From positions 1-54,067 of IMG/VR virus record IMGVR_UViG_3300032087_000618: DNA of 54,067 nucleotides, one strand, 5' to 3'. Position numbers and translations under genes: made by a program. The notes beneath the pieces are model-generated. The model was not told the origin of the DNA and searched no databases. It saw only the letters and a program-made list of their open reading frames with translations. Shown piece by piece: positions 18,447 to 54,067 of the stretch; position 1 is the stretch's first letter; every line of letters starts with the position of its first letter. Source of the stretch: a virus (Duplodnaviria > Caudoviricetes).

Positions 18447-18455
18447 TATTACAAT

Positions 18456-19200: not shown

Positions 19201-19205
19201 CGAAC

Positions 19206-19795: not shown

Positions 19796-19817
19796 TTATA
19801 GTACCTTATAGAGAGAG
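19796..19817 (+). promoter_or_regulatory. putative phage RNAP (late) promoter TTATAGTACCTTATA/GAGAGAG
   Basis: 21 of 22 bases identical to 10634-10655(-); points into terL and the virion operon. Confidence 0.75.
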
Positions 19818-20132
19818 AGTATACGTAGGAAACACTTTAGCAGGTGTAAGCTTACCCGACAGTAGCTTATGAGCTCCTTTATGGAGTTAGATTGGTATCC
19901 TTAAGGTACCCACAAGATATGGTAGCTTAAGGTACGAGGGGGCCTTAAGACTTTAGGGACCCTTGAGGTCCTTATCGACAATACAGATATCTATGTGTAG
20001 AGGTATTAGCCCCTCCCCCTAAGGGGCTATGGGGATCCTCGACACGGTAGGAACCCTTAGAGGTAATACTATAGATTATATTCCTATGGTACTACTCTCT
20101 CTGGTAAACTTTAAGGTCTGGGAGGACTACAA

Positions 20133-28105: not shown

Positions 28106-31100
28106 ATGGCTATTGAATATACACCAGAATCTAGCTTAGTGGCAGATCCTGCAGAGGGTGGGAGCTTTAGTGCTTCCAATGATGCAGAACTTGCTGGTGC
28201 TCAGTCATTTGCAGCTAAAGCAAAGTTAGCACAAATTGCTGCAGAACAGGCAGAAACCAATGCAGAAAACAGTGCTACTTCAGCTAGTGGTGCAGCATCA
28301 ACAGCCAGTACTTTTGCGACTAATGCAGCTAACAGTGCAACTGCTTCAGCTAACTCAGCTACAGCATCTGCTACATCTGCGACTAATGCAGCTAACAGTG
28401 CTACAGCAGCATCTGGCAGTGCCACAGATTCAGCAAACAGTGCTACAGCATCTGCAGGTTCAGCTACAGATTCAGCAAATAGCGCTACAGCATCCGCTTC
28501 GAGTGCTACAGCTTCAGCGGGTAGTGCTACAGACTCTGCCAATTCAGCAACAGCTTCAGCAAGTAGTGCTACAGATTCAGCTAACAGTGCCACAGCATCT
28601 GCAGGTTCAGCTACAGCAGCAGCTGGCAGTGCTACAGCAGCAGCTGGCAGTGCTACCTCAGCTTCTAATAGTGCCACAGATTCAGCAAACAGTGCTACAG
28701 CATCAGCTTCGAGTGCAACTGACTCAGCTAACTCTGCGACAGCTTCAGCTAACTCTGCAACTGCAGCAGCTGGTAGTGCAACTGCAGCATCTAATTCTGC
28801 AACTGCAGCATCTGGTAGTGCGACTGATGCAGCTAACAGTGCTACAGCAGCTGCTAACTCTGCGACTGCTTCTGCAGGCAGTGCCACTAGTTCATCTAAT
28901 AGCGCTACCTCAGCAGCAACTGCACAGACTGCCGCAGAAGCTGCAAGGGATGCAGCACTAGCAGCTTTTGATTCTTTTGATGACAGATACTTAGGTCAAA
29001 AATCCAGTGACCCCTCAACGGATAATGATGGCGATGCTCTTGTTGCAGGTACTTTATATTTTAATACCACAACAGATGCTATGATGGTTTATGAGGGAAG
29101 CTCATGGGTAGCTGCTTACGCTTCTTTATCAGGAGCATTAATTGCTAATAACAACCTGTCAGACTTAAACAATGCAGCTACAGCAAGAACTAACTTAGGT
29201 TTAGGCACAATTGCTACAGCAGCTGCTACAGATTATGTACCTGTAACTGGTGGTACTTTTACTGGTAACGTAGAGTCTCCAGAGTTTATAGGTACGCTTC
29301 AAGGTGAAGTAGTGTTCAAAGCTAAAGCTGGTGAAGCTATTACGAAAGGTGATGCTGTATACGTATCAGGTATTAGCGGGAACACTCCATTGGTATCTAA
29401 AGCAGATGCTGATGATGCAGCTAAGATGCCTGCTTTTGGATTATCTGCAGATACTGTTTCTGCAAACGCTGCTATGGAAGTTGTTATTTTAGGACAACTA
29501 AATAACATAGATACAAGCGGCTATGCCTTAGGAGATATTCTTTATGTATCGAATACCCCGGGAGCTCTTTCAGCTACTAAACCATCTGGAGAGTCTTCTC
29601 AGTTACAAAACATTGGCAAGGTAGAAAGGGTTCATGCAAGTACAGGTTCTATTCTGGTTTCAGGCTCAGGCCGTTCTGCTGCTACTCCAAACCTAAATGA
29701 TGGTCAATTCTTTTTAGGCAACGTATCAAATCAAGCAGTCAGCACTGACTTTACTACTTCTGTACTTGGAGAAATAAGTGCAGGCACTGGTATTGGTATA
29801 TCTGGCGGTGGGGTTATATCTAATAGCGCACCTGATCAGACTGTATCTTTAACAGGTACTGGGGCTACATCCGTTACAGGGACATACCCTAACTTTACTA
29901 TTGACAGCAGTGATAATAACACAACCTACACTGCATCAAACGGGATTACTCTCAGCGGCACAGACTTTCAGCTAACTGATACTAATGCAAAGCTAAACCT
30001 CACTGGCGGTACTATAACTAGTGGTGGGAACATCGGCCTTAAAGTAAGCCACGATGACTTCCAAGAAGGGATTATTAGCTACCGCAACCATGCTACATTT
30101 TCACCTAGTTATGTTTTTGAAAACGCTAGTGGTAGGACAGGTACTCTATATACACAAAATGATTTCCCAATGTGGCGTGATGGCACTACAAGCAATTCAT
30201 ACAAAGTGTGGACACAGGGCAACGATGGCTCAGGCTCAGGCTTAGATGCTGACCAGCTAGATGGTGTTGAAGCTACTGGTTTTGGTAGGTTTTATAACAA
30301 TGCAGTAATCACAGCTACAACTACAGCCGATCTAATAACGCAGTTGAGCAATAACTACGGAGCTTTTAATAATAACTATGTCACAGTTAAAGTTCAATGG
30401 TCTTATGCGGGTAGTGGTGATCTTGTAACAGGACATTCTACTATTGGTACTATTGAATTAGCGGGATGCCTTATTGAAACATGGGGTGGCACCTATAAGC
30501 ATATGCGTATAACAAGGCCAACAACAGGTACAGGTTTAACCAAGATTTGCGTATATAACGATCAAGGTAGCAGCTATAGCCCTGGTTGGAGAGAAATAAT
30601 ACAGGCTGATGGTACCGGTAAGATTGGTATTGGAACAAGCAGCCCCACAGCCCCTTTACATATTGATTCAGATACTAATCCAATGATTACTTTGGATAAC
30701 AATACTACAGGGGTTATTCCTCAGTTCCGAATATATAACGCTAATACTGCAAATGGTTATTTTGGAATAAACACTTTTGGTAATACAGGTAGGTTTACAC
30801 AAAACAGCAGTACAGGTACCCCAGGGTCTTTTACTTGGGAGCAAGGCTCACTTGGTGAAAAGATGAGGCTTAATAACCTAGGTAGATTAGGTATAGGGAC
30901 TACAGGCCCTGCCGCAGCTTTACACGTTGTAGGCTCTATTGTAGCTACTGGTAATATTACAGCTTACTACTCTGATGAACGTCTTAAAGATTTAAAGGGT
31001 ACTATTGAAAACCCCTTAGAAAAACTTAATACCTTAAACGGATACTACTACACCCCCAATGAAGAAGCAATCTTAGAGGGTGCGGAGTGGAATGGTTTAG

Positions 31101-39325: not shown

Positions 39326-40124
39326 AGGTAAAAGAACTACTTTTCAAAGTAGCTACGATTCAGAACTAGGTTGTTTTACAGATAGCTATATGCTTCAATG
39401 TAAAGGCGGTGGTGGTACAAGTACTACAACTGTTGAGCCTTCCCCAGAGCAAAGGGCTATACTAAACCAACAGTTAGGTTATGCTAGAGATATGGAAGCA
39501 TTAGGCCCTATGGAGTTCTATGGGGGCGACACAACAGCAGGTATGTCTTCTGACACTGAAGCAGGTCTTGCGGCCCAGCTAGATGCTGCAGGAAGCACAG
39601 GAGCACTTAGCGATACTGCTATGGCTAGGTTCCAAGATGCTATGGCTTATGATCCCTTAAAGGATCCCGGAACGCAAGATTATTTAGATGCTATTACTAA
39701 ACCACTAGTATCTAACTATGAGACAACTATTGCCCCTAAGTTAACTACTGCCGCTGTACAAGGTGGAGCATTTGGTGGCGATAGAGCTGCTATCCAACAA
39801 GAGCGTGCTATTTCTAATTTAACAGGTCAAGTAACAGATGCAAGGACTAAAGCTCTCCAAGGTATTGTAGACTCTAATAGACGACAACAGCTTGGTATGA
39901 TGCAACAGTTACCTCAACTACAAGATTCAGCTTTGCTTCAGTCTCAAATTATTCAAGACGTTGGTGCTGCTAAGGAAGGTTACACTCAAGCTGAAATTGA
40001 TGCAGCAAGAGAAAGATTTGAGTTTGGACAGACTGCACCTCGTCAAAACATACGAGATGCTGCGGCTATGCTTAGCGGTCTTGATTTTGGCAGTATTCAA
40101 ACAACAAAGGGAGGAGGTAAGTAA
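39315..40124 (+). CDS. DNA ejection/pilot protein
   Basis: Leader then KGGGGTSTTT, GAFGGDR; Q/A-rich helices. Confidence 0.65.
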   Translation: MKLKGKRTTFQSSYDSELGCFTDSYMLQCKGGGGTSTTTVEPSPEQRAILNQQLGYARDMEALGPMEFYGGDTTAGMSSDTEAGLAAQLDAAGSTGALSDTAMARFQDAMAYDPLKDPGTQDYLDAITKPLVSNYETTIAPKLTTAAVQGGAFGGDRAAIQQERAISNLTGQVTDARTKALQGIVDSNRRQQLGMMQQLPQLQDSALLQSQIIQDVGAAKEGYTQAEIDAARERFEFGQTAPRQNIRDAAAMLSGLDFGSIQTTKGGGK

Positions 40125-40705
40125 TGTTACCATTGTTAGCAATGTCATTAGGTGGAGCAGCATTAGGTGCTTTAGCTAATCCAAAAGACAGAAAGAAAGG
40201 TGCTCTTATGGGTCTTGGATTAGGTTTACTAGGCCCAGCTATGGGTGCAGCAGGTATTGGTTCTGGAGGTGTATTAGGTACTTCTCTTGGAGCTGGCGGG
40301 ACTGCTGCTACTACAGGAGCTGCTACTACAGGAGCTGCTGCCACTGTACCCGGAGCTGTAGCCAGTGCAGCCCCTGTTGTTGAATTAGGGATGTCTACTT
40401 CTGCTATAAACGCTAACGCTGCTAAACTAGCTGCTGAGCAAGCGGCTAAAAAGGCAGCAGGTGATATAGCAGGTAGCACTTTAGGTAGCCAGTTGGCTTC
40501 TGGTGCTGGTAAAGCTGCTGTTGCTTCTGCGCCTGTAGCTTTAGATATCTTAACTAGAGAACAACCTCGGAGTACAACTCAGACCCGTAGCATGTCAATA
40601 GATAATCAAGCTGTTGGGGCTCCAGTTGATCTTTATCAACAAGCAGCTCTTAATAGACAACAAAGAATGAAACGAGGCTTACCCGGACGGAGACTACGGG
40701 GATAA
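40124..40705 (+). CDS. Gly/Ala-rich ejection protein
   Basis: Hydrophobic G/A-rich N-terminus; TAATG coupling. Confidence 0.6.
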   Translation: MLPLLAMSLGGAALGALANPKDRKKGALMGLGLGLLGPAMGAAGIGSGGVLGTSLGAGGTAATTGAATTGAAATVPGAVASAAPVVELGMSTSAINANAAKLAAEQAAKKAAGDIAGSTLGSQLASGAGKAAVASAPVALDILTREQPRSTTQTRSMSIDNQAVGAPVDLYQQAALNRQQRMKRGLPGRRLRG

Positions 40706-40717: not shown

Positions 40718-43345
40718 ATGGCTAACGATTTAAAAACAATGTCTGACTTGTTCATGGGTTTAATGCACGACATTGATGACGATGAAGACAAAAAGAAAGG
40801 TCTTATACCCGGAACTAACATTCCGTTGCCAGACCCTAACAGCGTAGTCCCACCTGTTCTAGATCAGTTCCAAACACCTCCACCTAAAGCACCCTACCAG
40901 GATGCAGGGGAGTACATGCGGAATTATTTTGCTAGCAATCAAGAAGCTTTAGCTAACAGGGAGCCTATACCCAGAAAAGATATGTTAAGGGCTGATGGTA
41001 CCACTAAATCTGCTCAAGGATTCTTAGGTCCATTCCCAGACCAGTATGGCAAGATGATGACAGAGCAAACCATTGGAGTTGAAATAGACGGTAAGGAAGT
41101 ACAAATGCCAGCTATAGTTCCAACTACTACTCCAGATGAAATAGAGCTACTGGCTTCTGGTAATGTTAACTGGCAAAGCCCACGGGGTCAATTGATCCAA
41201 GATAAAGCCGTAGCTAACTACAGAGATCGAGTTAGTAGAGGCTTAAGCCCTTACTATCAGGATGGTGAAGGTGATGTACCTTCAGTACAAGAAGTGCCTA
41301 AACCAGCTGAAGTAGGTGGACCAGCTTATAGCTATGGTAACTTAGGTGTTAAGCCAGTTAGTACTGTGCTAGACTTAAATGATCCTAATCTGTATGATCC
41401 TTCTACAGGTAATTTAAAACCTGAGTATCAAAAACAAGCTGAAGCTCAATTTGACCCAAATAACTTAGTAGAAGTAGGTGGACCAGCTTATAGCTATGGT
41501 AACTTAGGTGTTAAACCTCAACGTGAGGTCCCTGAATTACCATTTAGTTATAACGTAGAAGATATTCTAAACAAAACCGCTTCAGATTACATACCTAAAC
41601 CTGAACCTACTTTTGGTCAACAAACTGATTTACCTACTTGGCTTACTAGTCCAATTGATGCTATGCGTGCAAGTCTAATGCCGGCAGCTATGGCTAATGA
41701 TCAAGCTAGGATTGACTTTTTAAAAGAACAAGTAGCTAAGGGTAACATGGATCCTGCGGCTCTTAAAGAGGTTGAACGTTTAGAGGAACGAATTAAAAAT
41801 AGTCAAAAGACAATTGATACCTACGAAGCAGAAAAACTTGCAGATAAAACGTACAAGGTTCAAAGGTTACTTGATGCAGGTCTTGTTGTTGAAGCTAGAA
41901 AGTTAGCTGACGAGTTAGGTGTAGACTTTAATACAATTGATAGCGGTACGAAATTAACTATCCCTGATAGCCCTATGATTGGATTAGGTGGTGTACCTAA
42001 GCCTGAGCCTGAACCTGAGGTAAGACCTCCATTAAGGGTTGTAACCACAGAAGAAACAGAAGCTTCAGGTGAACTTATTGGTAGCGACACTTCTAAGCAA
42101 GTTGATGAAAGCCTCAAGGTCTCAGGTGTACAACCTGGGGGTAAGGTTGTTACAACAACTAATACAGAAACAGAGGAAGAGGAAGTAGTAGTCGTTGACG
42201 AAAACGGTGATGAAAAACCCGGATTCCTTAAAAGCCTATGGAACGGCATTAAAGACATTGCTAAAGAAGGGTTTGAAGATCCGTCTTTACGTAGAGCTTT
42301 ATTTGCTTACACTGCCTCAAGAGTCTTAGGCTATGATGGAGTAACCCTAGCTTCTGCTGTTCTTGAGAATGAATGGCAAAAGCAAGCTGCTCAGGCTAAA
42401 GCTGATCGTGAATTAGAAAAACTTTATGGTGAAAAGCAAGCCAAACTAATTCTAGATAAAAGGGTAGACCCTACTAAAGTGTTTACTGTGTATGATAGTC
42501 AAACTAAAACTAACCTTACAGGCTCAACTAGTAAAGATGGTACATTGTTTTACCCAGATAATCCATCAGTCTTTGGGATCGAAGCAGGGTCACCTGTTGA
42601 CTTATCTAAGCTAAGAACTTTTGATGATGGTAGGTTTGAACCTCAAGCTGGTAAAACTATGGCTGAACTCCAAGGTGAGTACCTCGAGTTTGCAGGAAAC
42701 AAAGCTAAGGCTATTATAGCTCAAATAAAACAACGTAACTCCTCTATGGAGTCTACGCAGTTGGATGATTTAGTTTCACAGATGCAAGCTGCAACTAATG
42801 AAAATATTTTATCAGAACCTTTGATGGCGTTCTTATCAACCTTACCAGCAGGTGTAGATCCTAATGATAAGTTTGTTAGGGAAGCAGCTGTTAATGGTAT
42901 CAGAGAGTGGCTTAAATCCTTTGAAAGTGGTCAGACTGTCGATAGTAAAGACTTAGTTGGATTCCTTGATGCTCAACGTATGAAGCTTGATTTAACATCA
43001 AACGGAATACCTCAGGATTACTTTAAGATACCTGCAGATGAAAAGGGAGAAGCGCAAGTTGGTAACAATGCTATTTCTGTAATAATGAATGGTATTGAAA
43101 ACAGCCCTTATGCTAAAGACTTAGGATTAAGTACCCCAATTATTTTATCTAAGATGGCTGACATCTATGGCAAGAAAGTCATTAATGAAAAAGGCTTCCA
43201 AGGCAGAATGAATGGTTACTCTAAAGATTCATTTAGCGAAGGTGATAAGTCTAAGTTTGTATCTCCGTTCTTTGCTTTTGTTCAAAAATCATTTGCTTCA
43301 GACAATGAAGACATAGCAGAGTTAATGGCTGAACTTAAAAAATAA
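40718..43345 (+). CDS. internal virion/ejection protein
   Basis: Size and position; Pro-rich linkers. Confidence 0.65.
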   Translation: MANDLKTMSDLFMGLMHDIDDDEDKKKGLIPGTNIPLPDPNSVVPPVLDQFQTPPPKAPYQDAGEYMRNYFASNQEALANREPIPRKDMLRADGTTKSAQGFLGPFPDQYGKMMTEQTIGVEIDGKEVQMPAIVPTTTPDEIELLASGNVNWQSPRGQLIQDKAVANYRDRVSRGLSPYYQDGEGDVPSVQEVPKPAEVGGPAYSYGNLGVKPVSTVLDLNDPNLYDPSTGNLKPEYQKQAEAQFDPNNLVEVGGPAYSYGNLGVKPQREVPELPFSYNVEDILNKTASDYIPKPEPTFGQQTDLPTWLTSPIDAMRASLMPAAMANDQARIDFLKEQVAKGNMDPAALKEVERLEERIKNSQKTIDTYEAEKLADKTYKVQRLLDAGLVVEARKLADELGVDFNTIDSGTKLTIPDSPMIGLGGVPKPEPEPEVRPPLRVVTTEETEASGELIGSDTSKQVDESLKVSGVQPGGKVVTTTNTETEEEEVVVVDENGDEKPGFLKSLWNGIKDIAKEGFEDPSLRRALFAYTASRVLGYDGVTLASAVLENEWQKQAAQAKADRELEKLYGEKQAKLILDKRVDPTKVFTVYDSQTKTNLTGSTSKDGTLFYPDNPSVFGIEAGSPVDLSKLRTFDDGRFEPQAGKTMAELQGEYLEFAGNKAKAIIAQIKQRNSSMESTQLDDLVSQMQAATNENILSEPLMAFLSTLPAGVDPNDKFVREAAVNGIREWLKSFESGQTVDSKDLVGFLDAQRMKLDLTSNGIPQDYFKIPADEKGEAQVGNNAISVIMNGIENSPYAKDLGLSTPIILSKMADIYGKKVINEKGFQGRMNGYSKDSFSEGDKSKFVSPFFAFVQKSFASDNEDIAELMAELKK
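41309..41514 (+). repeat. perfect 44-bp direct repeat (41309-41352, 41471-41514)
   Basis: GAAGTAGGTGGACCAGCTTATAGCTATGGTAACTTAGGTGTTAA twice, in frame (EVGGPAYSYGNLGVK). Confidence 0.95.
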
Positions 43346-43371: not shown

Positions 43372-46300
43372 ATGAGCTACATTATAAATCAAAACCAAGA
43401 AGAAGAAGAGTTGGAGCCTATAGAAGGATCTCAAGCCGACTTAACCCCAGAGGCCCCATCGGAAGAAAAGAAAGTCTACCACGGGGCTCAGGCTGTAGAG
43501 CAGGTCTCTCAAAACATTGGAAGACCTTTGACTTATGCTGAGCAAAGAGTTGTAGAAGAGGAGGGGTACGTTGCTACTCCATACTTGGACACTAAAGGTA
43601 TTCTAACTCAAGGGGTAGGTCAGACTGGTGAGTGGATTGAAAAAGGCTTTGAGGCTGCTTTCCAGCATCATGTTGAAAGAACTGAACGTAGAATACCTAA
43701 CCTTAAAGAGTTGCCTGATACATTGCAAGCTGAGTTAATTCAAGCAGAATACAGGGGAGACTTAGGTCAATCCCCTACATTCTTAAAATTGTTTAACCAA
43801 GGTTTTTATCACACAGCTGCCGAAGAGTTCTTAGACCACAAGGAGTACAGAGAGTCTAAAGAAAAGGGCAGTGGTGTGCATAAGCGCATGAAAAGGGTAT
43901 CAGATGCGGTAGCTATGTTTGCTTCTGGAGAAACAGTAAAGGGTGAAGCAGTACCTGAGGCTGCTCGCTTTGAAACCGATTACAATATCGGAACCTCAGG
44001 CTTTGTTACAGTAGATGGAGATACATTTAAAAACAAAGAAACTGGAGTAAAGATCCGTTTAGGTGGAATTGATCTAGCTGAGACTAATAAAGTTGTTGCT
44101 GACAAAGGTTTTATTCGAGGAGAGGGTGGGGGTGACGTAACTAAAGTTATAGTCTCTGCTCTTTTTAATAAATATGGCTTTACAAACCCAGTAATAACTG
44201 ATGAAAAAGATAGCTATGGTAGAAATATTGGTGATATGGTAGATGATCAGGGTAATTCTGGTACGGATTTCCTTATTGCTTCCGGCATTGCTACTCCAAC
44301 GTTTATTGGTAATACAAAAGAAACTATGTCTGACGAGGAATACTCTCGTTATGTCTATAATATGGGACAAAGGGCTATCAGAGACCCTAAAAAACCTAAG
44401 ACTGACATAGAATTAGCTGCTGAACTGATAAGAACTGCAGAATATGCACCCACTAACGGGCAATTTGTAGCAAAACAGCTAGCTTTTAACGAAGCAGAGT
44501 TTGCTTTGATGCCTGAGTTGTTCTCAGGTGTGGTATTACGTAACAAAAATGCTACATTTGATAACAGATCTAAGACACCTTACTCTCAATCCTTTGATAA
44601 TGCTTTAGAAATGGTTAGAAACTCTTTCTTCCAGATAGCTTCTATGGGATTAGACGTAGCTGGCTTTGATGAAGCTGAAGCTTACATGCAAGGTCGGGTT
44701 GATTATAGTAAAAGCAGACTGAAAGACATGCCTAAGGTACGTTTAGACTATAAAGATGTAGATTGGACTAACTTAGACCAAATAGGGGAGTACTTAGGTG
44801 CTAACCTTGCAATGTCCTTACCCTTTATGGGTGTAACTGCAGCTTCACTGTTGCTAGCAGGCCCAACCGGAGGTGCTAGTTTATCTGCACCTGTTATGAT
44901 GTACACTGGTCTTATTATTGACGAAATGCCGGGAGAGCTTGAAGATAAAAGCTATACTTCTGCTGTCGTAGGTGGGTCAATAGCTGCTGCTTTAGATGTC
45001 TTTGGTCTTAGAGGAGCTTTAGGTCTTCTTAAACCTTCTCAGTTTATGACTGGAGAAGCTAAAGAGGCTGCTATCGAGGCTGTTCAAAATGCTAAAGGTG
45101 AATCACTACAACGTATCATATCTGTACTAGGTAAGGAAGCAGGTGATTCAGCTACTACAGGCGTACTAACTAGAGAACAAGCTGAGCTTGCCCTTGCAAG
45201 AAGCAGTAAGCGTCAGATTGCAGCATTGTCTGCAGGTGTTAAGGAAAAAGTAGACCAACAACTACGTAAAAGCGTATTGTTAAAACAGTTTACTAAGGAC
45301 CTTACAGCTGGTGCAGCTTTTGAGGGCAGTACGGAAATGCTTCAAGAGCTTACCCAGTATACTGCAGTAGTTATAGGATCAGATGAAGTATGGAACTTCG
45401 ATAAACTCCAAGACAGACTGGCTAATGCTTTAGTTGCTGGTGGGCTTATGGGTGCTGGTTTTGCTGCACCCGGATCTGTTTGGGAAGCTGGTGCATGGAA
45501 AGATGCTAGCGTAGCTATGGCCGAGTATGATAAAAGATACGATGAGGCTGCTACAACTTGGAAAGAAGAAGAAGTTGAACAGTTTGGTAAGGTAAGAGAC
45601 CTTGATGAAGCACTTGATGCTGAGTGGGATGAAGTTTCACAGAGAGAAGGTAAGCCCCTAGTAAAGAAAGGTGCTAAGCTTCCTGAAAACTTCGATCAAT
45701 TGTCCTTAGAAGAGCAGGCTGATATCCTTATGGGATCTGGTGGTCCTGTGATTAGGCTTGAAGAGTATGCTGATAAAGGTGAAGAACGTAGGAGTGCAAC
45801 ACCTAGGTCTGATAAACTAGTTGATATGTTTAAAGACCCTGTAGCTGCCCTACGTACTGCATTAGATACTCGGATGACTGTTGACTTACTTAATCAAAGT
45901 CCTTCTGCTAGGTTGATTTATTCCATGTTAGGTGGAAGAAAGAACCAAGTGCAAGCTGGATTAGACTTTACTTCAGATAAGGTTGCAAGTTACACAGGCT
46001 TTGAAGGTATGCTTCGTGGTGGTACTATACAAAACATACTTAATACTTTCCAGACAGAAGGTAAAAGGTATGGTAGGCAACGTACAGAAGTGTCTGCACT
46101 TATCTACGATTTCTATGGTACAGTTATCAGGCCTATTACTCAGCCTAAAGGTAAGAAAAGTAGCAACAAAGAGCGTCTAACAGGACCTGAAGTTATTGCA
46201 GCTATTGATTGGGATAATTTACCAACTAGGTTTCAAAAGAACTCTCAGGCTCTAAAGGATATTGTAACAGACTTGTATGCTGTCGATAATGCTATGTGGA

Positions 46301-48111
46301 AAAACATAACTGCTAGGCAGAGTCAAACATCTGAGCCGTTAATAGGTAAGCTACAGGATCACATCTTTAGAAGTAAGGCTTTCTTGAAAGAGAAAATAGC
46401 TAAGGATAAAGATACTTTTATTAAGTTACTTATGCAGGAGAAAGGTCTTAGCAAGGAAAATGCAGAGGCTGTTACAGATACTATACTAGATAACCCAGAT
46501 GCTAACTCATTAGAGGATGCATTTGATTTGACTAGAGGTGGTCTATACCCTGCAGGATTCAAGCGTAGATCATTAGACATTGCAGATAGTAAGGCTTTTG
46601 ATGGGTTCTTGCAGAACAATATCTTTGATAACCTTGAGCAGAACATGAAAAGCTCTGCACGATACATGACATCTTTGAAGTTCTTAGGTAAGAATAATAA
46701 ACTAATGGATCAGTTGCTAACTAAAGTTCACGATGAGTTAGTTGATAAGGGTAACCCTGATGCTGATGAGATAGTGCAAGACCTAGCTATGCACATAAGG
46801 GACCTTGTAAACGCTGACTCAGGTAACTACAGACGTATTGAAAGCGAAGCTGTACGTGGTGCTCAGAAGTTTATGACAGTAGTTGGTGTACTAACCATGC
46901 TACCCCTTGCTGCCCCTATGTCCTTAGTGGAGTTTGCACTAGCCCCTATGAATGTAAACATCCAAGCATTGAACAAAAACATTGGTTCTCTGGGTATGAT
47001 ACTTGGTAGAGAAATGTTTGAGTACTTTGCTGAGATAGGTAGGATCATGGGTGTGGCACCTAAGCGTAGTAACTTTGATACTGCTATTAAAGCTCGTAAG
47101 GAAAGAATGGGTGATGATCCAAGATACGTAGGTATCGAAGATCCCCGAGGACTTCTTAAGCGCATAGGTATGCTACAGCAGAAAACTGGTCAGGCTACCC
47201 TGGTTGGTGTATCTGAGACAAGTGAGTTTACTAAGGCTTTGATGGATAACTTCTTCAAGATTATTGGTTTGACTAGTGTAACTAATGCTACTCGTACATT
47301 GCGTGCTGCATTCTTTAACGACTTCTTAATCAGTAACTTGGATAAAATCCATTCAGCTGGTCTTTTGCAAACCAATGAAGTTGTTGAAGCTCGTCAGATG
47401 CTTGAAGAGTTTGGTATACCTGTAGACACTATGATTGATTTATCTATAGCAGTTAAGGCTGACCCAGATAACCCCCAGCTTAGAGCACAGTGGGAACGTC
47501 AGTTTGATAATGGATTGTTAAACTTTGTCAATGGTGCAGTACCTATGCCTCAGGCTATGACACGACCATTGGTATACAGTGATCCACACTTTGCTATGTT
47601 TATGCAGTTTCAAGGGTTTATTTCTCAGTTCACAGCGGTACATATTCCAAGGATTTGGAAGACAATCAATAAAGCTACCCCCGGCATGAAGTACTCTATG
47701 TTTGCTTCTTTAGCATCCATGTTAATGCTAGGGTATGCTGCTCAGTATCTCAAGGATCTTATTAAGTTTGGTGAAGGATCTCCATACTTATCAGATAATG
47801 AGAAATACTTACGTGCTCTGTATAGCTCAGGTTTACTTGGTACGACTGAAAGGATAATTAGTAATAACTTTTTATTTCCTTTATACGAAGATAGAAGCAG
47901 GTCACTTGTAGAAGCTACTTGGAACTTAGTAGCCGGAGAAGCCCCTGCATCTAATATTGTTGAGAACATATATGGATTAGGACAAGGTGCATTGGATGAT
48001 AACTCAAGAAAGATAGTTAAGTCTGGTCTTTCTTTGACACCTTTCTCACCTTTAAAACATAGAATATACGATGAACTAGTCCAAAACAATTGGATAACAG
48101 GAGATGAATAA
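43372..48111 (+). CDS. large internal virion protein with N-terminal T4-type lysozyme and staphylococcal-nuclease-like domains
   Basis: EGYVATPYLDTKGILTQGVG (E-x8-D-x5-T); VDGDT...IRLGGIDLAE...DSYGR...LIASGIA. Confidence 0.8.
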   Translation: MSYIINQNQEEEELEPIEGSQADLTPEAPSEEKKVYHGAQAVEQVSQNIGRPLTYAEQRVVEEEGYVATPYLDTKGILTQGVGQTGEWIEKGFEAAFQHHVERTERRIPNLKELPDTLQAELIQAEYRGDLGQSPTFLKLFNQGFYHTAAEEFLDHKEYRESKEKGSGVHKRMKRVSDAVAMFASGETVKGEAVPEAARFETDYNIGTSGFVTVDGDTFKNKETGVKIRLGGIDLAETNKVVADKGFIRGEGGGDVTKVIVSALFNKYGFTNPVITDEKDSYGRNIGDMVDDQGNSGTDFLIASGIATPTFIGNTKETMSDEEYSRYVYNMGQRAIRDPKKPKTDIELAAELIRTAEYAPTNGQFVAKQLAFNEAEFALMPELFSGVVLRNKNATFDNRSKTPYSQSFDNALEMVRNSFFQIASMGLDVAGFDEAEAYMQGRVDYSKSRLKDMPKVRLDYKDVDWTNLDQIGEYLGANLAMSLPFMGVTAASLLLAGPTGGASLSAPVMMYTGLIIDEMPGELEDKSYTSAVVGGSIAAALDVFGLRGALGLLKPSQFMTGEAKEAAIEAVQNAKGESLQRIISVLGKEAGDSATTGVLTREQAELALARSSKRQIAALSAGVKEKVDQQLRKSVLLKQFTKDLTAGAAFEGSTEMLQELTQYTAVVIGSDEVWNFDKLQDRLANALVAGGLMGAGFAAPGSVWEAGAWKDASVAMAEYDKRYDEAATTWKEEEVEQFGKVRDLDEALDAEWDEVSQREGKPLVKKGAKLPENFDQLSLEEQADILMGSGGPVIRLEEYADKGEERRSATPRSDKLVDMFKDPVAALRTALDTRMTVDLLNQSPSARLIYSMLGGRKNQVQAGLDFTSDKVASYTGFEGMLRGGTIQNILNTFQTEGKRYGRQRTEVSALIYDFYGTVIRPITQPKGKKSSNKERLTGPEVIAAIDWDNLPTRFQKNSQALKDIVTDLYAVDNAMWKNITARQSQTSEPLIGKLQDHIFRSKAFLKEKIAKDKDTFIKLLMQEKGLSKENAEAVTDTILDNPDANSLEDAFDLTRGGLYPAGFKRRSLDIADSKAFDGFLQNNIFDNLEQNMKSSARYMTSLKFLGKNNKLMDQLLTKVHDELVDKGNPDADEIVQDLAMHIRDLVNADSGNYRRIESEAVRGAQKFMTVVGVLTMLPLAAPMSLVEFALAPMNVNIQALNKNIGSLGMILGREMFEYFAEIGRIMGVAPKRSNFDTAIKARKERMGDDPRYVGIEDPRGLLKRIGMLQQKTGQATLVGVSETSEFTKALMDNFFKIIGLTSVTNATRTLRAAFFNDFLISNLDKIHSAGLLQTNEVVEARQMLEEFGIPVDTMIDLSIAVKADPDNPQLRAQWERQFDNGLLNFVNGAVPMPQAMTRPLVYSDPHFAMFMQFQGFISQFTAVHIPRIWKTINKATPGMKYSMFASLASMLMLGYAAQYLKDLIKFGEGSPYLSDNEKYLRALYSSGLLGTTERIISNNFLFPLYEDRSRSLVEATWNLVAGEAPASNIVENIYGLGQGALDDNSRKIVKSGLSLTPFSPLKHRIYDELVQNNWITGDE

Positions 48112-51100
48112 TGGCTAAAGGTCGAAGACTATCAGGTCAAGTAGCGCCACTTACAGAGGAAGAAAAAGCAGCAGCTCGAGAAGCAGAGGTAGCTAAGATC
48201 AAAGCAGGTTTACTAGACCAAGCAAATACAGCTGGTACTTTAGGATTAGAGGGACAAGATACAGGGCCACAGGAAGGCCCACCTATTGCACTTCCATCTG
48301 AAACTATTGCAGAAGATCTTAGAAATGTACAGGTTACTCCTCAGGAATCTCAGTTAGCTACGCAAGTAGAGACTGAGGCTACCCCTGAGGCTACACCTCA
48401 ACCTCAGCAAACCCCTATAGCCCAAGCGGTTTCACAAGCAAACCAAGAAAAGTTTGGTCTAACCCCTGAGCAACAAATAGAACGTGAGAATATTAGAGTC
48501 CCCTCTGTCATGGAAGCAGCAGGGGTCGCTAGGGATCGTCTAAACTTACGTAATCAGATTGGAGATAATAATGCTGATCGATTTGATTTAATGGCAGAAA
48601 AGTCTGACTACACCCACCCTGTTACTATGAGCGTTACAGACGCAATTCAGTTTGACCCTGTGCTAGAAGTATCAGATCCTGGGTTTCAGGAAGGACTTGA
48701 GGTACTAGATAAAGAAGCTTTTGAGGTAGAAGATAAAGGTAAAAGACCCTTGCGTGTAAATACTCAAGGTGCCCCTTTAAGACTTAATAGATCTAACATA
48801 CTACTATCAAATAAAGTTCTTGGTATTGGTATAAAGAATCCTAACTTTGATCCCACTGCTATTAAACTTAATGATAAAGGTGGCGTGGCTAACTATGAGG
48901 GAGCTAACCAACAGCCTTTTATACTGGATACTCGTTATATACCTACAATAGCTGCTGTAATTGAAGACATGCTTGTTAAGACTCAAAGAGATATCGAGTT
49001 TGAATCTGGGGCTAACTTAGACCAACCCCCTCTAGATATCGAAATGGATTCTGTTGACCCTACAGCTGCTGAAGTTTATAGGGAACAAGCTGGAAGGGCT
49101 GCACTGGGTAGATCTTTATTCCAAGCAATACGAAGAGAGAAAGCATACTTTGCTGGTGAGCCAACAGACACTTACATGGATGACTTTAAGAATACTACAC
49201 CAGAAACTTTTGAAGCTATTGGTGAAATGTTCTTAGATTATTATGCTACAGTTGCTCCACATATGGTCACTGTTACAAAAGGAACTTATAACACTGGAAC
49301 AGGTGAAGCTACTCAAAGGTCTTATGCTTTATCACCTGAAGCTTATATTGAGTTACAAGAATCTCGTGTAAAAGTACCAGACTTTAAGGCTAAGTTTCTT
49401 ACAATGAAACCTGAACTTGGCACTATACCCTTCGAAGGTATGCTGTTGAAGACAGAGACAGGTGTTATACCTACACCTAAGTCACAACCATTAGTTGAAG
49501 CTAAGATTAATGCTAGTCAAGTTACTAATGTTATTGATGGTAGAAGAGGTTCACTGGCTTTAATGCTTGGTGTACATGCATATGCTACTGCGGTAAAGAA
49601 ACCAGAGGCTAATATAGAATCCGCTAACTTTACTCTTAATGCTATGGATATGGGTCCTGCCCGTATGAATAAGATTAGAAGTATCTATGCTACTCAAAAA
49701 CTTAAGCGTGATATTGCTGACGAAAAGATAAAAGAAATAGACAGGAAGTCTGAACTTAGCGTTGGTGACTCAATACGCAGACAGCAGCTGGAAGCAGAAA
49801 AGCTTTTTAGAGAAGACTTGATGAAGAAGTATGAGTTAGGGAAACCTCTTGATGAAACAGGAACTAATGAGCTACAGGCTTTGTATTATCAACATGCTAA
49901 TAAAAACTTAGAGACCCTTAACTTCATTGCTAGGAATGGTGATGCACCTTTCTATCACACATTTGTAACCCAGAAAGGTAGCCAGCGTTTAACTACAGCT
50001 CAGTACTTATCTTTCCAGAATAGCCACTTGATGCGTAACGTCATTGGCTCTGGTGCTAAGGTTGAGATTAAACCGCTAAGAGGTGGTGAGATAGAGGATA
50101 ACTTCTTATGGTCTGCTAGTACTATCTTCTTTGGTGGTGGTGGTAAACTAAAAGAAGCGGCAATTAGTGATGCTTTGTTTAACATAAAAGAAAAGACACC
50201 TACTTACCAGAACGTTGTTAAGCTAGGTGGTAGGTTAAAAGAGTACTTAGGGATGTTTGATAAAGAGGGTGCGGTTAACTCCTTGAAGAACCTAAAGACT
50301 ACCCCTCAGGGTATCTCAGGTCTTAATGGGTTGAATGGTACATTACCACAGCCTATGCTTCAGGATAAAGAGCTAATGACTTTCTTAGAAGCCTTAAGTA
50401 ACTCTAAGGATTCTCACAAGCATATGATACAGCATCTCGATTATATGATGGCAATGGCTGAGTATGACCAAGCTATGAAGGATGGTACATCTTTCCACAC
50501 TTCTGTTAATGGGGTGGAGATTGACGGTATCTCTAACGGTCTTGCTAGTTTCTTTGTTATGCTAGGTCAGTACAATAAACTGCCTCGTATAGGTGTCACT
50601 AGGGCTGAAGGTTCTGAAGAAGTACTTGGTATGTGGAAAGACTTACCAAATGTTTTGACTGTACCAGAGGCATACGCAGGTGATATTAGGGAAACTTTGG
50701 CTGAAACTCTTCGTTTAAACATGGGCAACGAGGTATCCTCTCTTGCTATGTTTGACAGAAACATAATGGAAGAGTTTGGTTATAGTGAGCAAGACATACC
50801 TAAGCTTCGTAAGATATTAGAGATAGCACTTAAGAAAGAAAACAAAGCAACTTTCCTTAAAGCCCCTATACTTACTTTCCCTTATGGGCAAGAAACTAAA
50901 AATCTAATTGGTTCTATCTACGAAACTATTGTAGCAGATCCAGAGTTATACAAAGAAATTGAATCTTTCTTTGGTAATTTACCTACGGGTGCTAGGTTCT
51001 TAGATATGATTAGGATGCAGGCTCTTAGGTCTACTTTAGGTTATGATGTAATGTTATTCTCTAATCTAGCAAAAGCTGCTGTTGACTTTTCAAGTATCTA

Positions 51101-52097
51101 TAACAGGTACATGTCTGTGACAAACCCAGCAGGCGGTGAGTCTATGTTTGTAGGTAAAGAAACAAAACGTACAGAACGTACAGTTGACCTTAAAGCTACA
51201 TCCAGAAGAGACAAGAAGACAGGTAGAGCAAAACCTTTGATAGCTGCTATGGAAAGACAAAAAGCTAAAGCTGAAGCTGCAGGTGATCTTGAGTCAGCTA
51301 CTAAGTACTCTCAACTTATCAAGGAAACTAAGTCCCCTAGACCCATGGAGATTGCTAAGAAGAAATCATTCCTTAGCCCTTTGACTGCACGTAGAGGTAT
51401 TAGTGGGGGTGTTGCTCATGGTTCTGTATTACCTAACATTGCTCAAGGACTTGACGGTGCTACGGTAATTAAGACTTTTAGTGGCCCTGCTTGGAATGCT
51501 CTAAGTAAAACAGCTGACGGTGAACCTTGGGTTCTTCCTGTATATGATGCTTTCATTACAGATCTTAGATCAATGGGTAAGATGACAAGCATTATAAACT
51601 CTCAGTGGTTTAACATGACATCTGAAACTACTATCATTGATGAAATGGTACAAGGGTTGGATAGGAATGTTAAGCAAGGGAGGAAGATATTTAGTAAGCT
51701 AGCGCAGGAAGGTGGTGTGATTGATGAGGCAGAGCATGGAGCTCTTGCAGATCATGTAGTAAACATGCTGACTTATGCTAAACTTTCAGAGGAAGAAAGA
51801 GGTGAAGCCCAGTCTCTTATTCAGGCGTTAACTGGTGAGTATGTTAGCGGTGGTGTTCAAACAAAACAATCAAGGAACTATCAGAATCTTTATAGTGCCC
51901 AGTTGTTTTTAGAGCAGACTGTCTTTTTCAATACACAAAGAGATATTACTAGATTAGCTCAGAAGTCTAAAGAAGGCAGAGCAAAGATAAGAAGTAAAGT
52001 TAAAGCTGACAAAGAAGGTTATGGACATGAAGTCCTGCAGTATGCTATGGATGACATAGGCCTTGATAAGTCTGCAATGGCATTATTAGATACATAA
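48111..52097 (+). CDS. putative virion-encapsidated single-subunit RNA polymerase (N4 vRNAP-like, compact)
   Basis: Motifs in the correct order: FYHTFVTQKGSQRL..LSFQ, motif A EIDGISNG, motif B LKAPILTFPYG, PNIAQGLDG, motif C VLPVYDAF. Last gene of the ejection cluster. Confidence 0.8.
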   Translation: MAKGRRLSGQVAPLTEEEKAAAREAEVAKIKAGLLDQANTAGTLGLEGQDTGPQEGPPIALPSETIAEDLRNVQVTPQESQLATQVETEATPEATPQPQQTPIAQAVSQANQEKFGLTPEQQIERENIRVPSVMEAAGVARDRLNLRNQIGDNNADRFDLMAEKSDYTHPVTMSVTDAIQFDPVLEVSDPGFQEGLEVLDKEAFEVEDKGKRPLRVNTQGAPLRLNRSNILLSNKVLGIGIKNPNFDPTAIKLNDKGGVANYEGANQQPFILDTRYIPTIAAVIEDMLVKTQRDIEFESGANLDQPPLDIEMDSVDPTAAEVYREQAGRAALGRSLFQAIRREKAYFAGEPTDTYMDDFKNTTPETFEAIGEMFLDYYATVAPHMVTVTKGTYNTGTGEATQRSYALSPEAYIELQESRVKVPDFKAKFLTMKPELGTIPFEGMLLKTETGVIPTPKSQPLVEAKINASQVTNVIDGRRGSLALMLGVHAYATAVKKPEANIESANFTLNAMDMGPARMNKIRSIYATQKLKRDIADEKIKEIDRKSELSVGDSIRRQQLEAEKLFREDLMKKYELGKPLDETGTNELQALYYQHANKNLETLNFIARNGDAPFYHTFVTQKGSQRLTTAQYLSFQNSHLMRNVIGSGAKVEIKPLRGGEIEDNFLWSASTIFFGGGGKLKEAAISDALFNIKEKTPTYQNVVKLGGRLKEYLGMFDKEGAVNSLKNLKTTPQGISGLNGLNGTLPQPMLQDKELMTFLEALSNSKDSHKHMIQHLDYMMAMAEYDQAMKDGTSFHTSVNGVEIDGISNGLASFFVMLGQYNKLPRIGVTRAEGSEEVLGMWKDLPNVLTVPEAYAGDIRETLAETLRLNMGNEVSSLAMFDRNIMEEFGYSEQDIPKLRKILEIALKKENKATFLKAPILTFPYGQETKNLIGSIYETIVADPELYKEIESFFGNLPTGARFLDMIRMQALRSTLGYDVMLFSNLAKAAVDFSSIYNRYMSVTNPAGGESMFVGKETKRTERTVDLKATSRRDKKTGRAKPLIAAMERQKAKAEAAGDLESATKYSQLIKETKSPRPMEIAKKKSFLSPLTARRGISGGVAHGSVLPNIAQGLDGATVIKTFSGPAWNALSKTADGEPWVLPVYDAFITDLRSMGKMTSIINSQWFNMTSETTIIDEMVQGLDRNVKQGRKIFSKLAQEGGVIDEAEHGALADHVVNMLTYAKLSEEERGEAQSLIQALTGEYVSGGVQTKQSRNYQNLYSAQLFLEQTVFFNTQRDITRLAQKSKEGRAKIRSKVKADKEGYGHEVLQYAMDDIGLDKSAMALLDT

Positions 52098-52098: not shown

Positions 52099-52129
52099 AA
52101 AAAAAAAGAGGAGCCCGTTAAGGCCCCTC
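52099..52129 (-). terminator. terminator of the minus-strand arm
   Basis: Minus strand GAGGGGCC-TTAACG-GGCTCCTC then T9. Confidence 0.85.
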
Positions 52130-52150
52130 AGGAATCATGGAAGATTCATT

Positions 52151-52178
52151 GGACCCCTTAATTGGGGTCCTTTTTTTT
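52151..52178 (+). terminator. terminator of the virion operon
   Basis: GGACCCC-TTAATT-GGGGTCC then T8. Confidence 0.88.
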
Positions 52179-52457: not shown

Positions 52458-52790
52458 TTATTCATCCTTAACGAATATGCCATCAACCATTCGTCCAGTT
52501 CGTTTACTGATAACCTCATAAGCTTGATCGAGGCACTCGTATAAATTAGTATTCCACAGGCGTGTCTGCATGATAAGAGTAACAAGTATGTCACCAATGG
52601 CATCTACCGCCTCCTCTCTGTTGTTACTGGCAATAGCATCGGCTAGCTCCTTAACTTCCTCTTCGGTCTTTACTAACTGCTTAGACCGTATGAATGTATC
52701 TGGAGCATTGGTTGTAAGTATCCCTCGGCTATAGCCCCAGTCAACTACCTTATTCTCCAGCTCTTCCATTATCTCGTACTTACTCATCAT
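52458..52790 (-). CDS. MazG-like nucleotide pyrophosphohydrolase
   Basis: KTEEEVKEL...DAIGDILVTL...AYEVISKRTGRMVDGIFVK. Confidence 0.85.
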   Translation of the reverse strand: MMSKYEIMEELENKVVDWGYSRGILTTNAPDTFIRSKQLVKTEEEVKELADAIASNNREEAVDAIGDILVTLIMQTRLWNTNLYECLDQAYEVISKRTGRMVDGIFVKDE

Positions 52791-53013: not shown

Positions 53014-54066
53014 TTAGCTAAAGAAGTAGTCAGAACTAATGACTTCCTCTATCTTAAGATCACCCAGCTCTGGTTGCTTAACTGAGTAACCCTTACGGTC
53101 TTCTAGGATTAAAGATTCTATCTTATCAAAGAAGTTTTCTACATTGTACATCATAGCAAACTGCCACTTAGTATGCTCTAGTAGTTTGTCTACATCACAA
53201 GCATGGGTTGAGAACGAATCATGTACTGCCCCAAAGCTCCCAGGGAATGATTCGATAACCTTAGCCATATGTGATGCATCCATAGAGTGTACAAAGTTAG
53301 GCGAACAGCCTGATGCAAACGACCTTCGGCAGGGTATAGCATTACCTTCTTTATTTATTACAGGTATCTTTATGCTATGACCTATCTGCCCTAGGCCACC
53401 TATGGTACTGCGTAGTGTCAAGTTCTTTTGTTTCCATACTTCGTATAGCACAGGGAAACCTGACGGTGTAGTCCACTGAAGGCATGTCTCTCCACTTTCA
53501 AGAACATAGTCTGTTATTTTCTGGAGAAACTTCATGGTCTTTAGGGGACCTACACAGGTATCATTAATGGCTAGTATAAGGTTCTTTGCCAGAACATCAC
53601 AGTCTTCCTTTGTGATCTTATACTTCCTATGATAACCCTCTGTCTTACAATCGTAAAACATATTCTCTGCAATCTTTCTTTGACCTGCAGAGTACGCCCT
53701 TGTCATTGAGCCACGTTTAGCTATGCCCTTTCTGATAGCTTTCATAGGCATATTTCTTTGCTCAAACCACTCAGGCATTCTATCAATCAAACGTTTCGCA
53801 ACCTTTACATAGAAGTCTTTTTGTATACTCTGAGGAACAATTGAGACTAACTTACCAGCCTGACTGTCCTTAGACATCGCAGCCAGATGCTGCCAGCCAT
53901 TGTTACTTCCATCTACAGGTATAGGTAGTCTCGAATGATAGACTCCCTCGGACTCTACGTAGCCTTTGAGATCAAGACAACATGCCAGTAGGGACACTGG
54001 CTTTTCTGCTTCCATCCTGAACTTCATCTCTTTTGCATCCTGTATCAGTTCTTTCTGATTGTGGAT
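53014..54066 (-). CDS. T7-like single-subunit RNA polymerase, C-terminal part
   Basis: Motif A PVDGSNNGWQH, motif B RKGIAKRGSMTRAYS, WTTPSGF, PNFVHSMDA, motif C VHDSF, YFFS end; frame open to the window edge. Confidence 0.95.
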   Translation of the reverse strand: MHNQKELIQDAKEMKFRMEAEKPVSLLACCLDLKGYVESEGVYHSRLPIPVDGSNNGWQHLAAMSKDSQAGKLVSIVPQSIQKDFYVKVAKRLIDRMPEWFEQRNMPMKAIRKGIAKRGSMTRAYSAGQRKIAENMFYDCKTEGYHRKYKITKEDCDVLAKNLILAINDTCVGPLKTMKFLQKITDYVLESGETCLQWTTPSGFPVLYEVWKQKNLTLRSTIGGLGQIGHSIKIPVINKEGNAIPCRRSFASGCSPNFVHSMDASHMAKVIESFPGSFGAVHDSFSTHACDVDKLLEHTKWQFAMMYNVENFFDKIESLILEDRKGYSVKQPELGDLKIEEVISSDYFFS

Positions 54067-54067
54067 T

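Follow-up and report, generated by a model that had tools for sequence, protein, structure and literature searches.

The stretch of DNA analysed here (hereinafter, the window) is the entire 54,067-bp IMG/VR virus record IMGVR_UViG_3300032087_000618 (Duplodnaviria; Caudoviricetes; CheckV completeness 96%), and the element in question is the final gene of its plus-strand arm, an open reading frame (ORF) for a 1328-amino acid (aa) protein that is predicted to be a compact single-subunit RNA polymerase (RNAP) and is probably packaged in the virion. The plus-strand arm begins at position 20133 with the gene for the large terminase (TerL), which is followed by genes for the portal, scaffold, major capsid protein (MCP), tail fibre and virion proteins; its later part encodes a 269-aa 'DNA ejection protein' (phrog_4287), then proteins of 193, 875 and 1579 aa that appear to correspond to gp14, gp15 and gp16 of phage T7, and finally the putative polymerase. 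The translation stop of the 1579-aa gene and the ATG of the polymerase gene overlap (TAATG), and a GGAG ribosome-binding site lies 7 nucleotides (nt) upstream of this ATG. A prior reading of the DNA alone, without database searches (the original prediction), had noticed an RNAP with ordered motifs at the end of an ejection cluster; the ORF was found where this prediction had put it, with the motif coordinates correct to within a few codons, and the gene is indeed the last of the cluster; it is also translationally coupled to that of the gp16-like protein.

The fold of the protein was predicted with AlphaFold2 (AF2) for residues 130-1328 from an alignment of 14 sequences (model numbering starts at residue 130), which resulted in a mean predicted local distance difference test score (pLDDT) of 71.4 and a predicted template modelling score (pTM) of 0.60. 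A Foldseek search of the PDB with this model produced 71 matches at E<=1e-3 and, among those listed, all were T7, mitochondrial or N4 virion RNAPs (vRNAPs), with the best match to 3e3j_B (3.6e-9) and a match to the N4 chain 3c3l_A at 1.6e-8 (query TM-score 0.36). When VIA-align was run on the Foldseek list, 721 chains were aligned, 73 of them at Z>=8, and the matches listed again consisted exclusively of T7, mitochondrial and N4 single-subunit RNAPs (50/50). The alignment with T7 RNAP (8dh5_E) has a Z-score of 20.8 over 521 residues with a root mean square deviation (rmsd) of 5.8 A (model 297-1183 against T7 267-883), and that with the N4 mini-vRNAP (3c46_A) a Z-score of 19.1 over 552 residues with an rmsd of 4.9 A (model 298-1185 against 302-1063); the N4 mini-vRNAP structures as a group fall within Z 18.4-19.1 over 552-575 residues, and the mitochondrial RNAPs within Z 16-18. 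In BFVD, 45 matches reached E<=1e-3; the functionally annotated ones correspond to segments of N4-like vRNAPs or to T7-like RNAPs, several others being nameless or carrying non-informative names. In a search of the ESM Atlas with language model features, PF00940 sets account for 25 of the 30 nearest clusters. Secondary structure assignment with DSSP has D805 within a beta strand (model 675-677) and D1146 at a turn between two strands (1012-1015 and 1018-1022), as would be expected for the catalytic aspartates of a polymerase palm; the mean pLDDT of the blocks around these residues, motifs A and C, is 74 and 76, respectively. The comparison with the N4 mini-vRNAP and T7 RNAP structures that had been suggested as a check on the original prediction therefore ended in a match to both, and the assignment to the single-subunit RNAPs of the T7/N4 type, borne out by the fold and by the residue alignments alike, is as secure as a prediction can make it.

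The motifs of this superfamily follow each other in the ORF in the same order and with the same spacing as in T7 RNAP and the N4 mini-vRNAP, according to both the profile alignments and the fold alignments (Table 1). Residues were mapped with hhalign in local mode, by aligning the family (19 sequences) with 10 N4-like polymerase domains and with 12 T7-like RNAPs; these alignments, which are colinear over 874 and 598 columns, respectively, serve for residue mapping only and not as evidence of homology, and the global mode was uninformative. In both alignments, the known catalytic residues are paired with their counterparts in T7 and N4, whose catalytic role is well established and which were numbered by counting along the fetched sequences. 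The stretch FYHTFVTQKGSQRL...SFQ (residues 614-636 of the ORF) comprises the equivalent of the T/DxxGR motif: KGSQR, with the invariant R626, is paired with TRVGR of N4, and SFQNSH with NPQSAK, the motif being left unpaired in the T7 alignment and located in a region with a pLDDT below 50; the consensus of the wider family at this position is xxGR...FNPQ. The equivalent of T7 R627, the arginine four residues ahead of the motif B lysine, is not kept at that position.

In an alignment of 12 homologues with 32-75% identity, D805, G806, S808, N809, G810, K917, Y925, G926, D1146, A1147, Q621, R626 and D1115 are all invariant. Across 42 homologues with only 17-32% identity, there is no variation at R626, D805, G806, G810, K917, Y925 or G926, and at least 90% of the sequences retain each of the residues D1115, D1146 and A1147. 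Because they are invariant or nearly so across the homologues, the motifs represent more than a chance resemblance, an explanation that was also rejected on the strength of the fold results. Both catalytic aspartates that had been called from the sequence, D805 and D1146, thus hold up, in their alignment with T7 RNAP as well as in their conservation.

The part of the protein that lies outside the RNAP fold is limited to the N-terminal ~150 residues, which are of low complexity and could possibly serve as a packaging or ejection segment; conserved blocks are visible within this region in the 12-homologue alignment. The equivalent of the T7 N-terminal domain follows, with the model aligned from position 154 onward to the N4 mini-vRNAP from position 158 onward (VIA-align), and then the polymerase domain proper.

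When 1.84 billion cluster representatives were screened with a profile built from 11 sequences over residues 426-1328, 251 clusters (at 50% identity) were retrieved with E<=1e-3, of which 204 reach E<=1e-10 and 60 reach E<=1e-30. Most proteins among the 150 best of these 251 clusters are 1,100-1,350 aa long, the full range being 1,062-1,681 aa plus fragments, and none comes near 3,500 aa. The only names attached to the ten clusters that were looked up are 'hypothetical protein' and Tara gene labels, and none of the sources consulted assigns the family a functional name. The family comes from marine phages, and at least four studies from 2020-2025 include seawater or marine metagenome runs with DNA nearly identical to the window; the source of the record itself may be among these runs. 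Searches with three family members (P0001, P0086 and P0026) against 50,697 GenBank phage records (tblastn) gave no match, and exact peptide patterns of P0086 matched nothing in IMG/VR. Among the PHROG families, the protein matches phrog_2206, 'virion RNA polymerase', over residues 759-822, which span motif A (E 1.4e-4). Of 38 diverse relatives, 16 match phrog_414 (best 1.8e-6) and three match phrog_2206 (best 4e-10), other PHROGs being absent from these results at E<=0.01.

The gene is not the only RNAP gene of the phage. The record is a circular permutation, both ends of which fall inside a gene for a T7-like RNAP (phrog_414); the two halves are contiguous in relatives and together encode ~698 aa, compared with 883 aa in T7. 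The N-terminal half also has a weaker match to phrog_2166, 'N4-like RNA polymerase'. In the synteny analysis of 88 IMG/VR loci with relatives at 22-75% identity, which include some near-duplicates and hence are not all independent, a convergent T7-like RNAP gene was found in all 77 loci with at least 3.5 kb of downstream sequence, in agreement with the original claim that the ORF encodes a second RNAP, and a gene for a protein similar to the gp16-like one is located upstream on the same strand in all 53 loci with at least 5 kb of upstream sequence. The 875-aa gp15-like protein is likewise kept upstream in relatives. In loci L001-L023, the polymerase shows 30-43% identity where the T7-like RNAP shows 75-90%, the primase/helicase 80-92% and the gp16-like protein 52-64%.

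Cysteine is completely absent from the last four proteins of the plus-strand arm, that is, those of 193, 875, 1579 and 1328 aa (0 in 3,975 residues). The enzymes of the phage contain 0.6-2.3 Cys per 100 residues, with endonuclease VII at 7.3, and at an enzyme-like Cys frequency of ~1.5%, the chance of finding none in 1,328 residues is ~2e-9. The same pattern holds across the family: 19 of 19 close members have no Cys, and among the matches listed, 113 of the 122 representatives of at least 1000 aa have none and the other 9 have one. The N4 vRNAP has none in 3,500 residues and neither do gp33, gp34 and gp35 of Roseobacter phage CRP-7, to be compared with 13-16 in the T7-like RNAPs of the clade and 12 in T7 RNAP. 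The use of cysteine absence as a criterion is our own; a lack of cysteine is also mentioned for vRNAPs in PMC10747016. Taken together, the position of the gene, its translational coupling to the gp16-like gene and the total lack of cysteine suggest that the polymerase probably is packaged and injected.

Table 1. Coordinates of the polymerase gene, its domains and motifs, and other features of the window
Feature	Position	Strand	Basis and remarks
1328-aa cysteine-free single-subunit RNAP homologue	48111-52097	+	ATG start; AF2 model; Foldseek and VIA-align matches
N-terminal ~150 residues, low-complexity, outside the RNAP fold	48111-48560	+	VIA alignments begin at ~residue 150
N-terminal domain equivalent, residues ~150-425	48558-49385	+	VIA: model 21-296 = T7 RNAP 66-266
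Polymerase domain (thumb, palm, fingers), residues ~426-1312	49386-52046	+	VIA to T7 and N4
T/DxxGR-equivalent region, P613-R642	49947-50036	+	Invariant R626 and R642; SFQ = N4/T7 NPQ
Motif A EIDGISNG, residues 803-810, predicted catalytic D805	50517-50540	+	D805 aligned with T7 D537, N4 D559
Motif B K917-x7-Y925-G926	50859-50888	+	K917 aligned with T7 K631, N4 K670; Y925 with T7 Y639, N4 Y678; G926 with T7 G640, N4 G679
Pre-motif C PNIAQGLDG, residues 1108-1116 (D1115)	51432-51458	+	Aligned with T7 PNFVHSQDG (780-788); unpaired in N4
Motif C VYDAF, residues 1144-1148, predicted catalytic D1146	51540-51554	+	Aligned with T7 H811-D812 (D1146 with D812) and with the N4 'KIFDG' stretch (D1146 with its Asp)
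193-aa cysteine-free protein, putatively T7 gp14-like (position and size)	40124-40705	+	No family match; 0 Cys
875-aa cysteine-free protein, putatively T7 gp15-like (position and size)	40718-43345	+	No family match; 0 Cys
1579-aa cysteine-free internal virion protein D (IVP-D)/gp16-like ejection protein, N-terminal lysozyme-like domain	43372-48111	+	
GGAG ribosome-binding site and TAATG overlap (IVP-D stop/polymerase start)	48100-48113	+	Sequence read
Two convergent terminator-like hairpins closing the late arm and the opposing arm	52108-52170	.	3' of the polymerase gene
T7-like RNAP, C-terminal part	53014-54067	-	phrog_414 at 2.2e-77; contains cysteine
T7-like RNAP, N-terminal part	1-1023	-	phrog_414 at 7e-27
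T7-type promoter-like 21-mer, head of the late arm	19797-19817	+	TATAGTACCTTATAGAG(A/G)GAG
T7-type promoter-like 21-mer, second copy	10634-10654	-	TATAGTACCTTATAGAG(A/G)GAG
Two AACCGACAC motifs just after a terminator; second promoter-like class	18394-18447	-	
ACCGACA(A/C) cluster following a terminator and preceding both the replication genes and the gene for the T7-like RNAP	9939-9998	-	

The 1579-aa protein shows similarity to phrog_37474 (7.9e-41), to phrog_6958, 'virion structural protein' (5.5e-21), and to the endolysin family phrog_7 (2e-5), and its match to PF00959 (9e-4) is below the family cut-off. The gene for the 875-aa gp15-like protein includes a 47-nt direct repeat, 98% identical between its two copies (41309-41355 and 41471-41517), which suggests an internal duplication. 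Farther upstream, the tail-fibre gene (1059 aa) contains ~20 tandem copies of a 21-nt repeat (28295-28924) that encodes 7 aa rich in Ala and Ser.

The minus-strand arm extends from 19484 down across the ends of the record to 52177 and encompasses small early ORFs, an amidoligase/amidotransferase operon, and genes for ribonucleotide reductase, DNA polymerase A, an exonuclease, an HNH endonuclease, primase/helicase, the T7-like RNAP and a MazG-like protein. The operon at 12070-17802 (-) encodes an amidoligase, a glutamine amidotransferase and a RimK/ATP-grasp-like protein, and phage phiRIO-1 has been described as carrying a similar operon, which would serve to form gamma-glutamyl or unusual peptide bonds (PMC4819975). 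The HNH endonuclease, of the homing type, is inserted between the exonuclease and primase/helicase genes (2657-3196, -), the endonuclease VII encoded at 7681-8055 (-) has 9 Cys in 124 aa, and the gene for the MazG-like pyrophosphatase (52458-52790, -) is located just downstream of the T7-like RNAP gene, a position that is conserved in relatives.

The two arms are separated by a 648-bp non-coding region (19485-20132) that retains 67-82% nt identity in relatives in which the polymerase shows only 30-35% protein identity. This region, which may be the site of the genome ends, of an origin or of a regulatory hub, is dense in short palindromes of the CCCTAAGGG/CCTTAAGG type and includes several perfectly conserved blocks.

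Two classes of promoter-like motifs surfaced from counts of 8- and 9-mers in the intergenic DNA of the phage; neither generic repeat finding nor a count of 10-mers revealed promoters, and a 20-nt degenerate pattern for the second class recovered one site only, being too strict. The first class is the T7-type 21-mer TATAGTACCTTATAGAG(A/G)GAG, present in exactly two copies in the window against 0.01 expected; four phages share this perfectly conserved block, one of them having it twice. The second class is represented by elements with the core AACCGACA(A/C), which in relatives are ~23 nt long and end with ACATGCAAA; they invariably come directly behind a terminator and T-run and are oriented with the early/replication arm. 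In five records (the window and its relatives G001-G004), there are 13 matches to this core, at two conserved sites 7-8 kb apart and on a single strand in each record (13 to 0), and the reversed control yields 4. In our reading of these sequences, the conserved positions do not fit the spacing of the sigma70 -35 and -10 boxes. That two motif classes specific to the phage coexist with two RNAPs of its own is suggestive.

One of the closest known counterparts of the polymerase is gp50 of phage N4 (Schitoviridae), in which the mini-vRNAP corresponds to residues 998-2103. The single-subunit RNAP fold is common to the two proteins, motif A is alike (VEIDGISNG here, VEADGVTNG in N4), neither contains cysteine, and both phages carry a second, small T7-like RNAP. 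The N4 vRNAP gene is also the last on its strand, converging on the opposite arm, and in both phages the polymerase gene ends an ejection cassette after gp14- and gp15-like genes, although in the phage described here the gp14 and gp15 roles are assigned from size, position and lack of Cys. In the N4 cassette, gp52 is gp14-like, gp51 has a gp15-like fold and gp50, the vRNAP, has been proposed to be expelled last (PMC13434306). The principal difference is one of size, 1328 aa against the 3500 aa of gp50, the N- and C-terminal domains of the latter being absent here, where only the ~150 N-terminal residues extend beyond the RNAP fold (VIA-align). The gp16-like function would reside in the separate upstream protein of 1579 aa rather than in the polymerase polypeptide; a BLASTP comparison of this protein with the full-length N4 gp50 found nothing.

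Sequence similarity to N4 is marginal throughout. A tblastn search with 36 window proteins against N4 bases 20000-60000, which hold the N4 DNA polymerase, coat protein, 94-kDa protein and vRNAP, gave no match at E 1e-3, consistent with the original statement that the capsid and replisome of this phage are not N4-like. The polymerase family had no match to the single N4 mini-vRNAP sequence in hhalign, and the family hidden Markov model (HMM) assigns 18.5 bits to a divergent N4-like sequence. The label 'N4-like' that had been given to the polymerase itself therefore survives in part: the fold does match that of the N4 mini-vRNAP, but it is equally close to T7 RNAP, the phrog_414 matches among the relatives outnumber those to phrog_2206 (16/38 against 3/38), and the N4 terminal domains are missing.

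T7 RNAP and the RNAPs of Autographiviridae (phrog_414, PF00940) share the fold, and motifs A, B, pre-C and C map to those of the present protein residue for residue. Compared with T7 RNAP, the protein is ~450 aa longer and has no Cys instead of 12; unlike the RNAPs of Autographiviridae, it is encoded in the structural/ejection arm, not among early or replication genes, and it matches neither phrog_414 nor PF00940, while a genuine phrog_414 RNAP is encoded elsewhere in the same phage. With T7 gp14/gp15/gp16 and the IVP-D family, the polymerase has in common that it is large, mostly alpha-helical and cysteine-free, and it directly continues the gp14/15/16-like series, but it is a fourth, extra protein after the gp16-like one and has a polymerase fold, not a channel-forming one. 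Internal virion proteins can host domains destined for the cytoplasm, as exemplified by the N4 vRNAP, which is contained within an IVP-D homologue (Hardies et al., PMC4819975). In StenR_269 and some Zobellviridae, large cysteine-free ORFs have been proposed to be vRNAPs, in the accessible part of that work without fold evidence (PMC10747016).

Delivery of a polymerase together with the DNA is a feature of crAss-like phages, of phiKZ-like jumbo phages with their virion RNAPs and of Thermus phages with an RNAP fused to the tape measure protein. These enzymes are of the two-barrel or multisubunit type, in contrast to the T7/N4 right-hand fold predicted here. Literature searches, which covered papers other than their supplements, turned up neither a report of an N4-type virion RNAP that is compact or stands alone nor one of a second RNAP in CRP-7-type phages. 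Judging from the predicted structure and the sequence comparisons, the protein would be a new compact, unfused variant of the virion RNAP kind within the single-subunit RNAP superfamily, found in a clade of CRP-7-like podophages; it is placed outside both named families because it is neither a giant three-domain polypeptide like N4 gp50 nor a match to the Pfam RNA_pol profile.

The nearest cultured relative found is Roseobacter phage CRP-7 (MK613349), with 56% identity in TerL, 51% in the portal, 50% in the MCP and 46% in the primase; the C-terminal part of the 1579-aa gp16-like protein is 28% identical to CRP-7 gp34. The layout of the CRP-7 genome is the same, and gp33 (1235 aa, 'hypothetical protein') ends the structural arm, convergent with the T7-like RNAP gene. 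In the region 7860-19368 of this genome, gp33 (1235 aa), gp34 (1368 aa) and gp35 (1223 aa) all lack cysteine and are annotated as 'hypothetical proteins'. As far as the accessible part of the CRP-7 paper goes, ORF30 is the only one named as an RNAP (PMC6918029). The gp33 protein carries QKGTTR, R-x7-YG, QGGDST and IHDA in the same order as in the 1328-aa protein, with an altered motif A (EADARQSNAG). Its homology to the family is not significant in BLASTP or hhalign, and BLASTP against the representatives listed gives none; the family HMM yields only 7-16 bits over the best stretch, and prediction of its fold from a 6-sequence alignment was unsuccessful (pLDDT 37). The membership of gp33 in the family accordingly is unproven.

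On balance, delivery of the polymerase in the virion and a role in early transcription appear to be the best explanation of these observations, one that we hold with some, if limited, confidence. The protein would then be a compact (~1300 aa), catalytically competent T7/N4 right-hand RNAP that is synthesized late, from the final gene of the ejection operon, and joins the gp14-, gp15- and gp16-like internal proteins inside the capsid. On infection, it would be expelled last via the channel built by these proteins, pass the envelope unfolded, which is the proposed cause of the lack of cysteine, and refold in the cytoplasm. The injected polymerase would transcribe the part of the genome that enters first, helping draw the DNA in, with a later handover to the cytoplasmic T7-like RNAP, which would work from the T7-type promoters. 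This would amount to the N4 strategy, but with the polymerase free-standing beside a gp16-like protein instead of being embedded in a 3500-aa polypeptide.

Several results weigh against this explanation. The phage already has a T7-like RNAP, so that a second one is not obviously required. Sequence searches with the 1328-aa protein found no Pfam family at E<=1, and PF00940 was matched by only one of the 38 diverse relatives, at E 0.0057, which is at noise level, that is, no better than unrelated matches; because the protein has no PF00940 match above the cut-off, the relation is one at the superfamily or fold level. A phmmer search of PDB sequences with the single protein returned 0 matches, hmmsearch of the PDB with profiles of 12 and 42 sequences returned only unrelated matches at E >0.3 and no RNAP, and the local hhalign alignments are not significant (E 0.0094 for N4 and 0.15 for T7, with 0.048 in the N4-versus-T7 control). 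The AF2 model has a pLDDT below 50 at motif B (model 781-797; 43-45) and in the T/DxxGR loop (490-504). As for the promoters, a conserved N4-style hairpin was not found, the two linear promoter-like classes being present instead. In addition, a TTGTAA-N18-TATAAG element is located upstream of the early ORF 18552-19040 (19097-19150, -), and contigs from three RNA-library runs of two studies all end at 19097-19105, just downstream of this element. Since these runs consist of contigs, their ends are not ends of molecules and uncovered stretches are not evidence of silence. The element gives a weak hint of a host-type early promoter; if it is one, the host RNAP could start the infection. A sigma70 scan of positions 7500-20400 detected 29 sites, fewer than the 33.5 in shuffled sequences. 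A CCAGCC-TTCG-GGCTGG hairpin is embedded in the TTGTAA-N18-TATAAG element.

The intact fold and catalytic motifs, along with the two distinct classes of promoter-like motifs in the genome, would be compatible as well with an active second RNAP that stays in the cytoplasm, unpackaged, and serves a promoter class unread by the T7-like enzyme, for instance that of very late genes or of replication priming. This option is unlikely, given that the gene closes the structural arm in translational coupling with the gp16-like gene and that its product shares a zero Cys content with the ejection proteins and the N4 vRNAP, as opposed to 13-16 Cys in the cytoplasmic RNAPs of the clade; moreover, a polymerase that is made only late cannot serve early genes unless the particle carries it in.

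Alternatively, the protein could be packaged and ejected but play a mainly mechanical or otherwise non-transcriptional role, as a motor, an anchor or a source of primers, with early expression left to the host RNAP. We judge such a role improbable. It would fit the sigma70-like element and the coinciding ends of the RNA contigs upstream of the early ORF, the fact that transcription drives genome entry in T7-type phages, and the faster evolution of the polymerase than of its neighbours (30-43% identity against 75-90% for the T7-like RNAP), but drawing DNA in by transcription is itself transcription, and the invariance of the residues involved in nucleoside triphosphate (NTP) binding and catalysis, including Y925 (T7 Y639), across ~250 clusters points to real RNA synthesis. 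That the protein is an inactive polymerase-fold relic, retained solely as a structural internal virion protein, is very improbable despite the absence of a Pfam match, the fast divergence of the sequence and the low model confidence at motif B, because a relic would have lost its catalytic residues, whereas both metal-binding aspartates and the K, Y and G of motif B vary little or not at all even among relatives with as little as 17% identity.

Starting from the virion-delivered transcribing polymerase, a more inclusive scenario can be sketched, which we offer tentatively and consider doubtful as a whole. The abundant clade of CRP-7-like marine podophages would run an N4-style programme that is independent of the host RNAP, in which the free-standing minimal injected RNAP reads the ~23-nt AACCGACA... 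elements located behind terminators in the early/replication arm, thereby switching on the T7-like RNAP gene, and the T7-like enzyme then reads the TATAGTACCTTATAGAG elements; the family would represent the unfused state from which N4 gp50 arose by fusion of a gp16-like protein with a polymerase.

Injected polymerases of the T7/N4 type have so far been treated as a hallmark of Schitoviridae and always as giants of ~3500 residues. The protein described here stands alone with ~1300 residues, about as many as the engineered 'mini-vRNAP' of N4 has, and its family occurs in marine phages with an ordinary T7-like RNAP of their own. The CRP-7-type group, which is ubiquitous and abundant in marine viromes (PMC6918029), thereby gains a concrete, testable gene function. 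If the polymerase is packaged, the N4 infection strategy would extend far beyond its currently assumed range, the idea that N4 gp50 originated when an ejection protein fused with a polymerase could be put to the test, and a naturally minimal polymerase made for unfolding, threading through the tail and refolding would be open to study and use.

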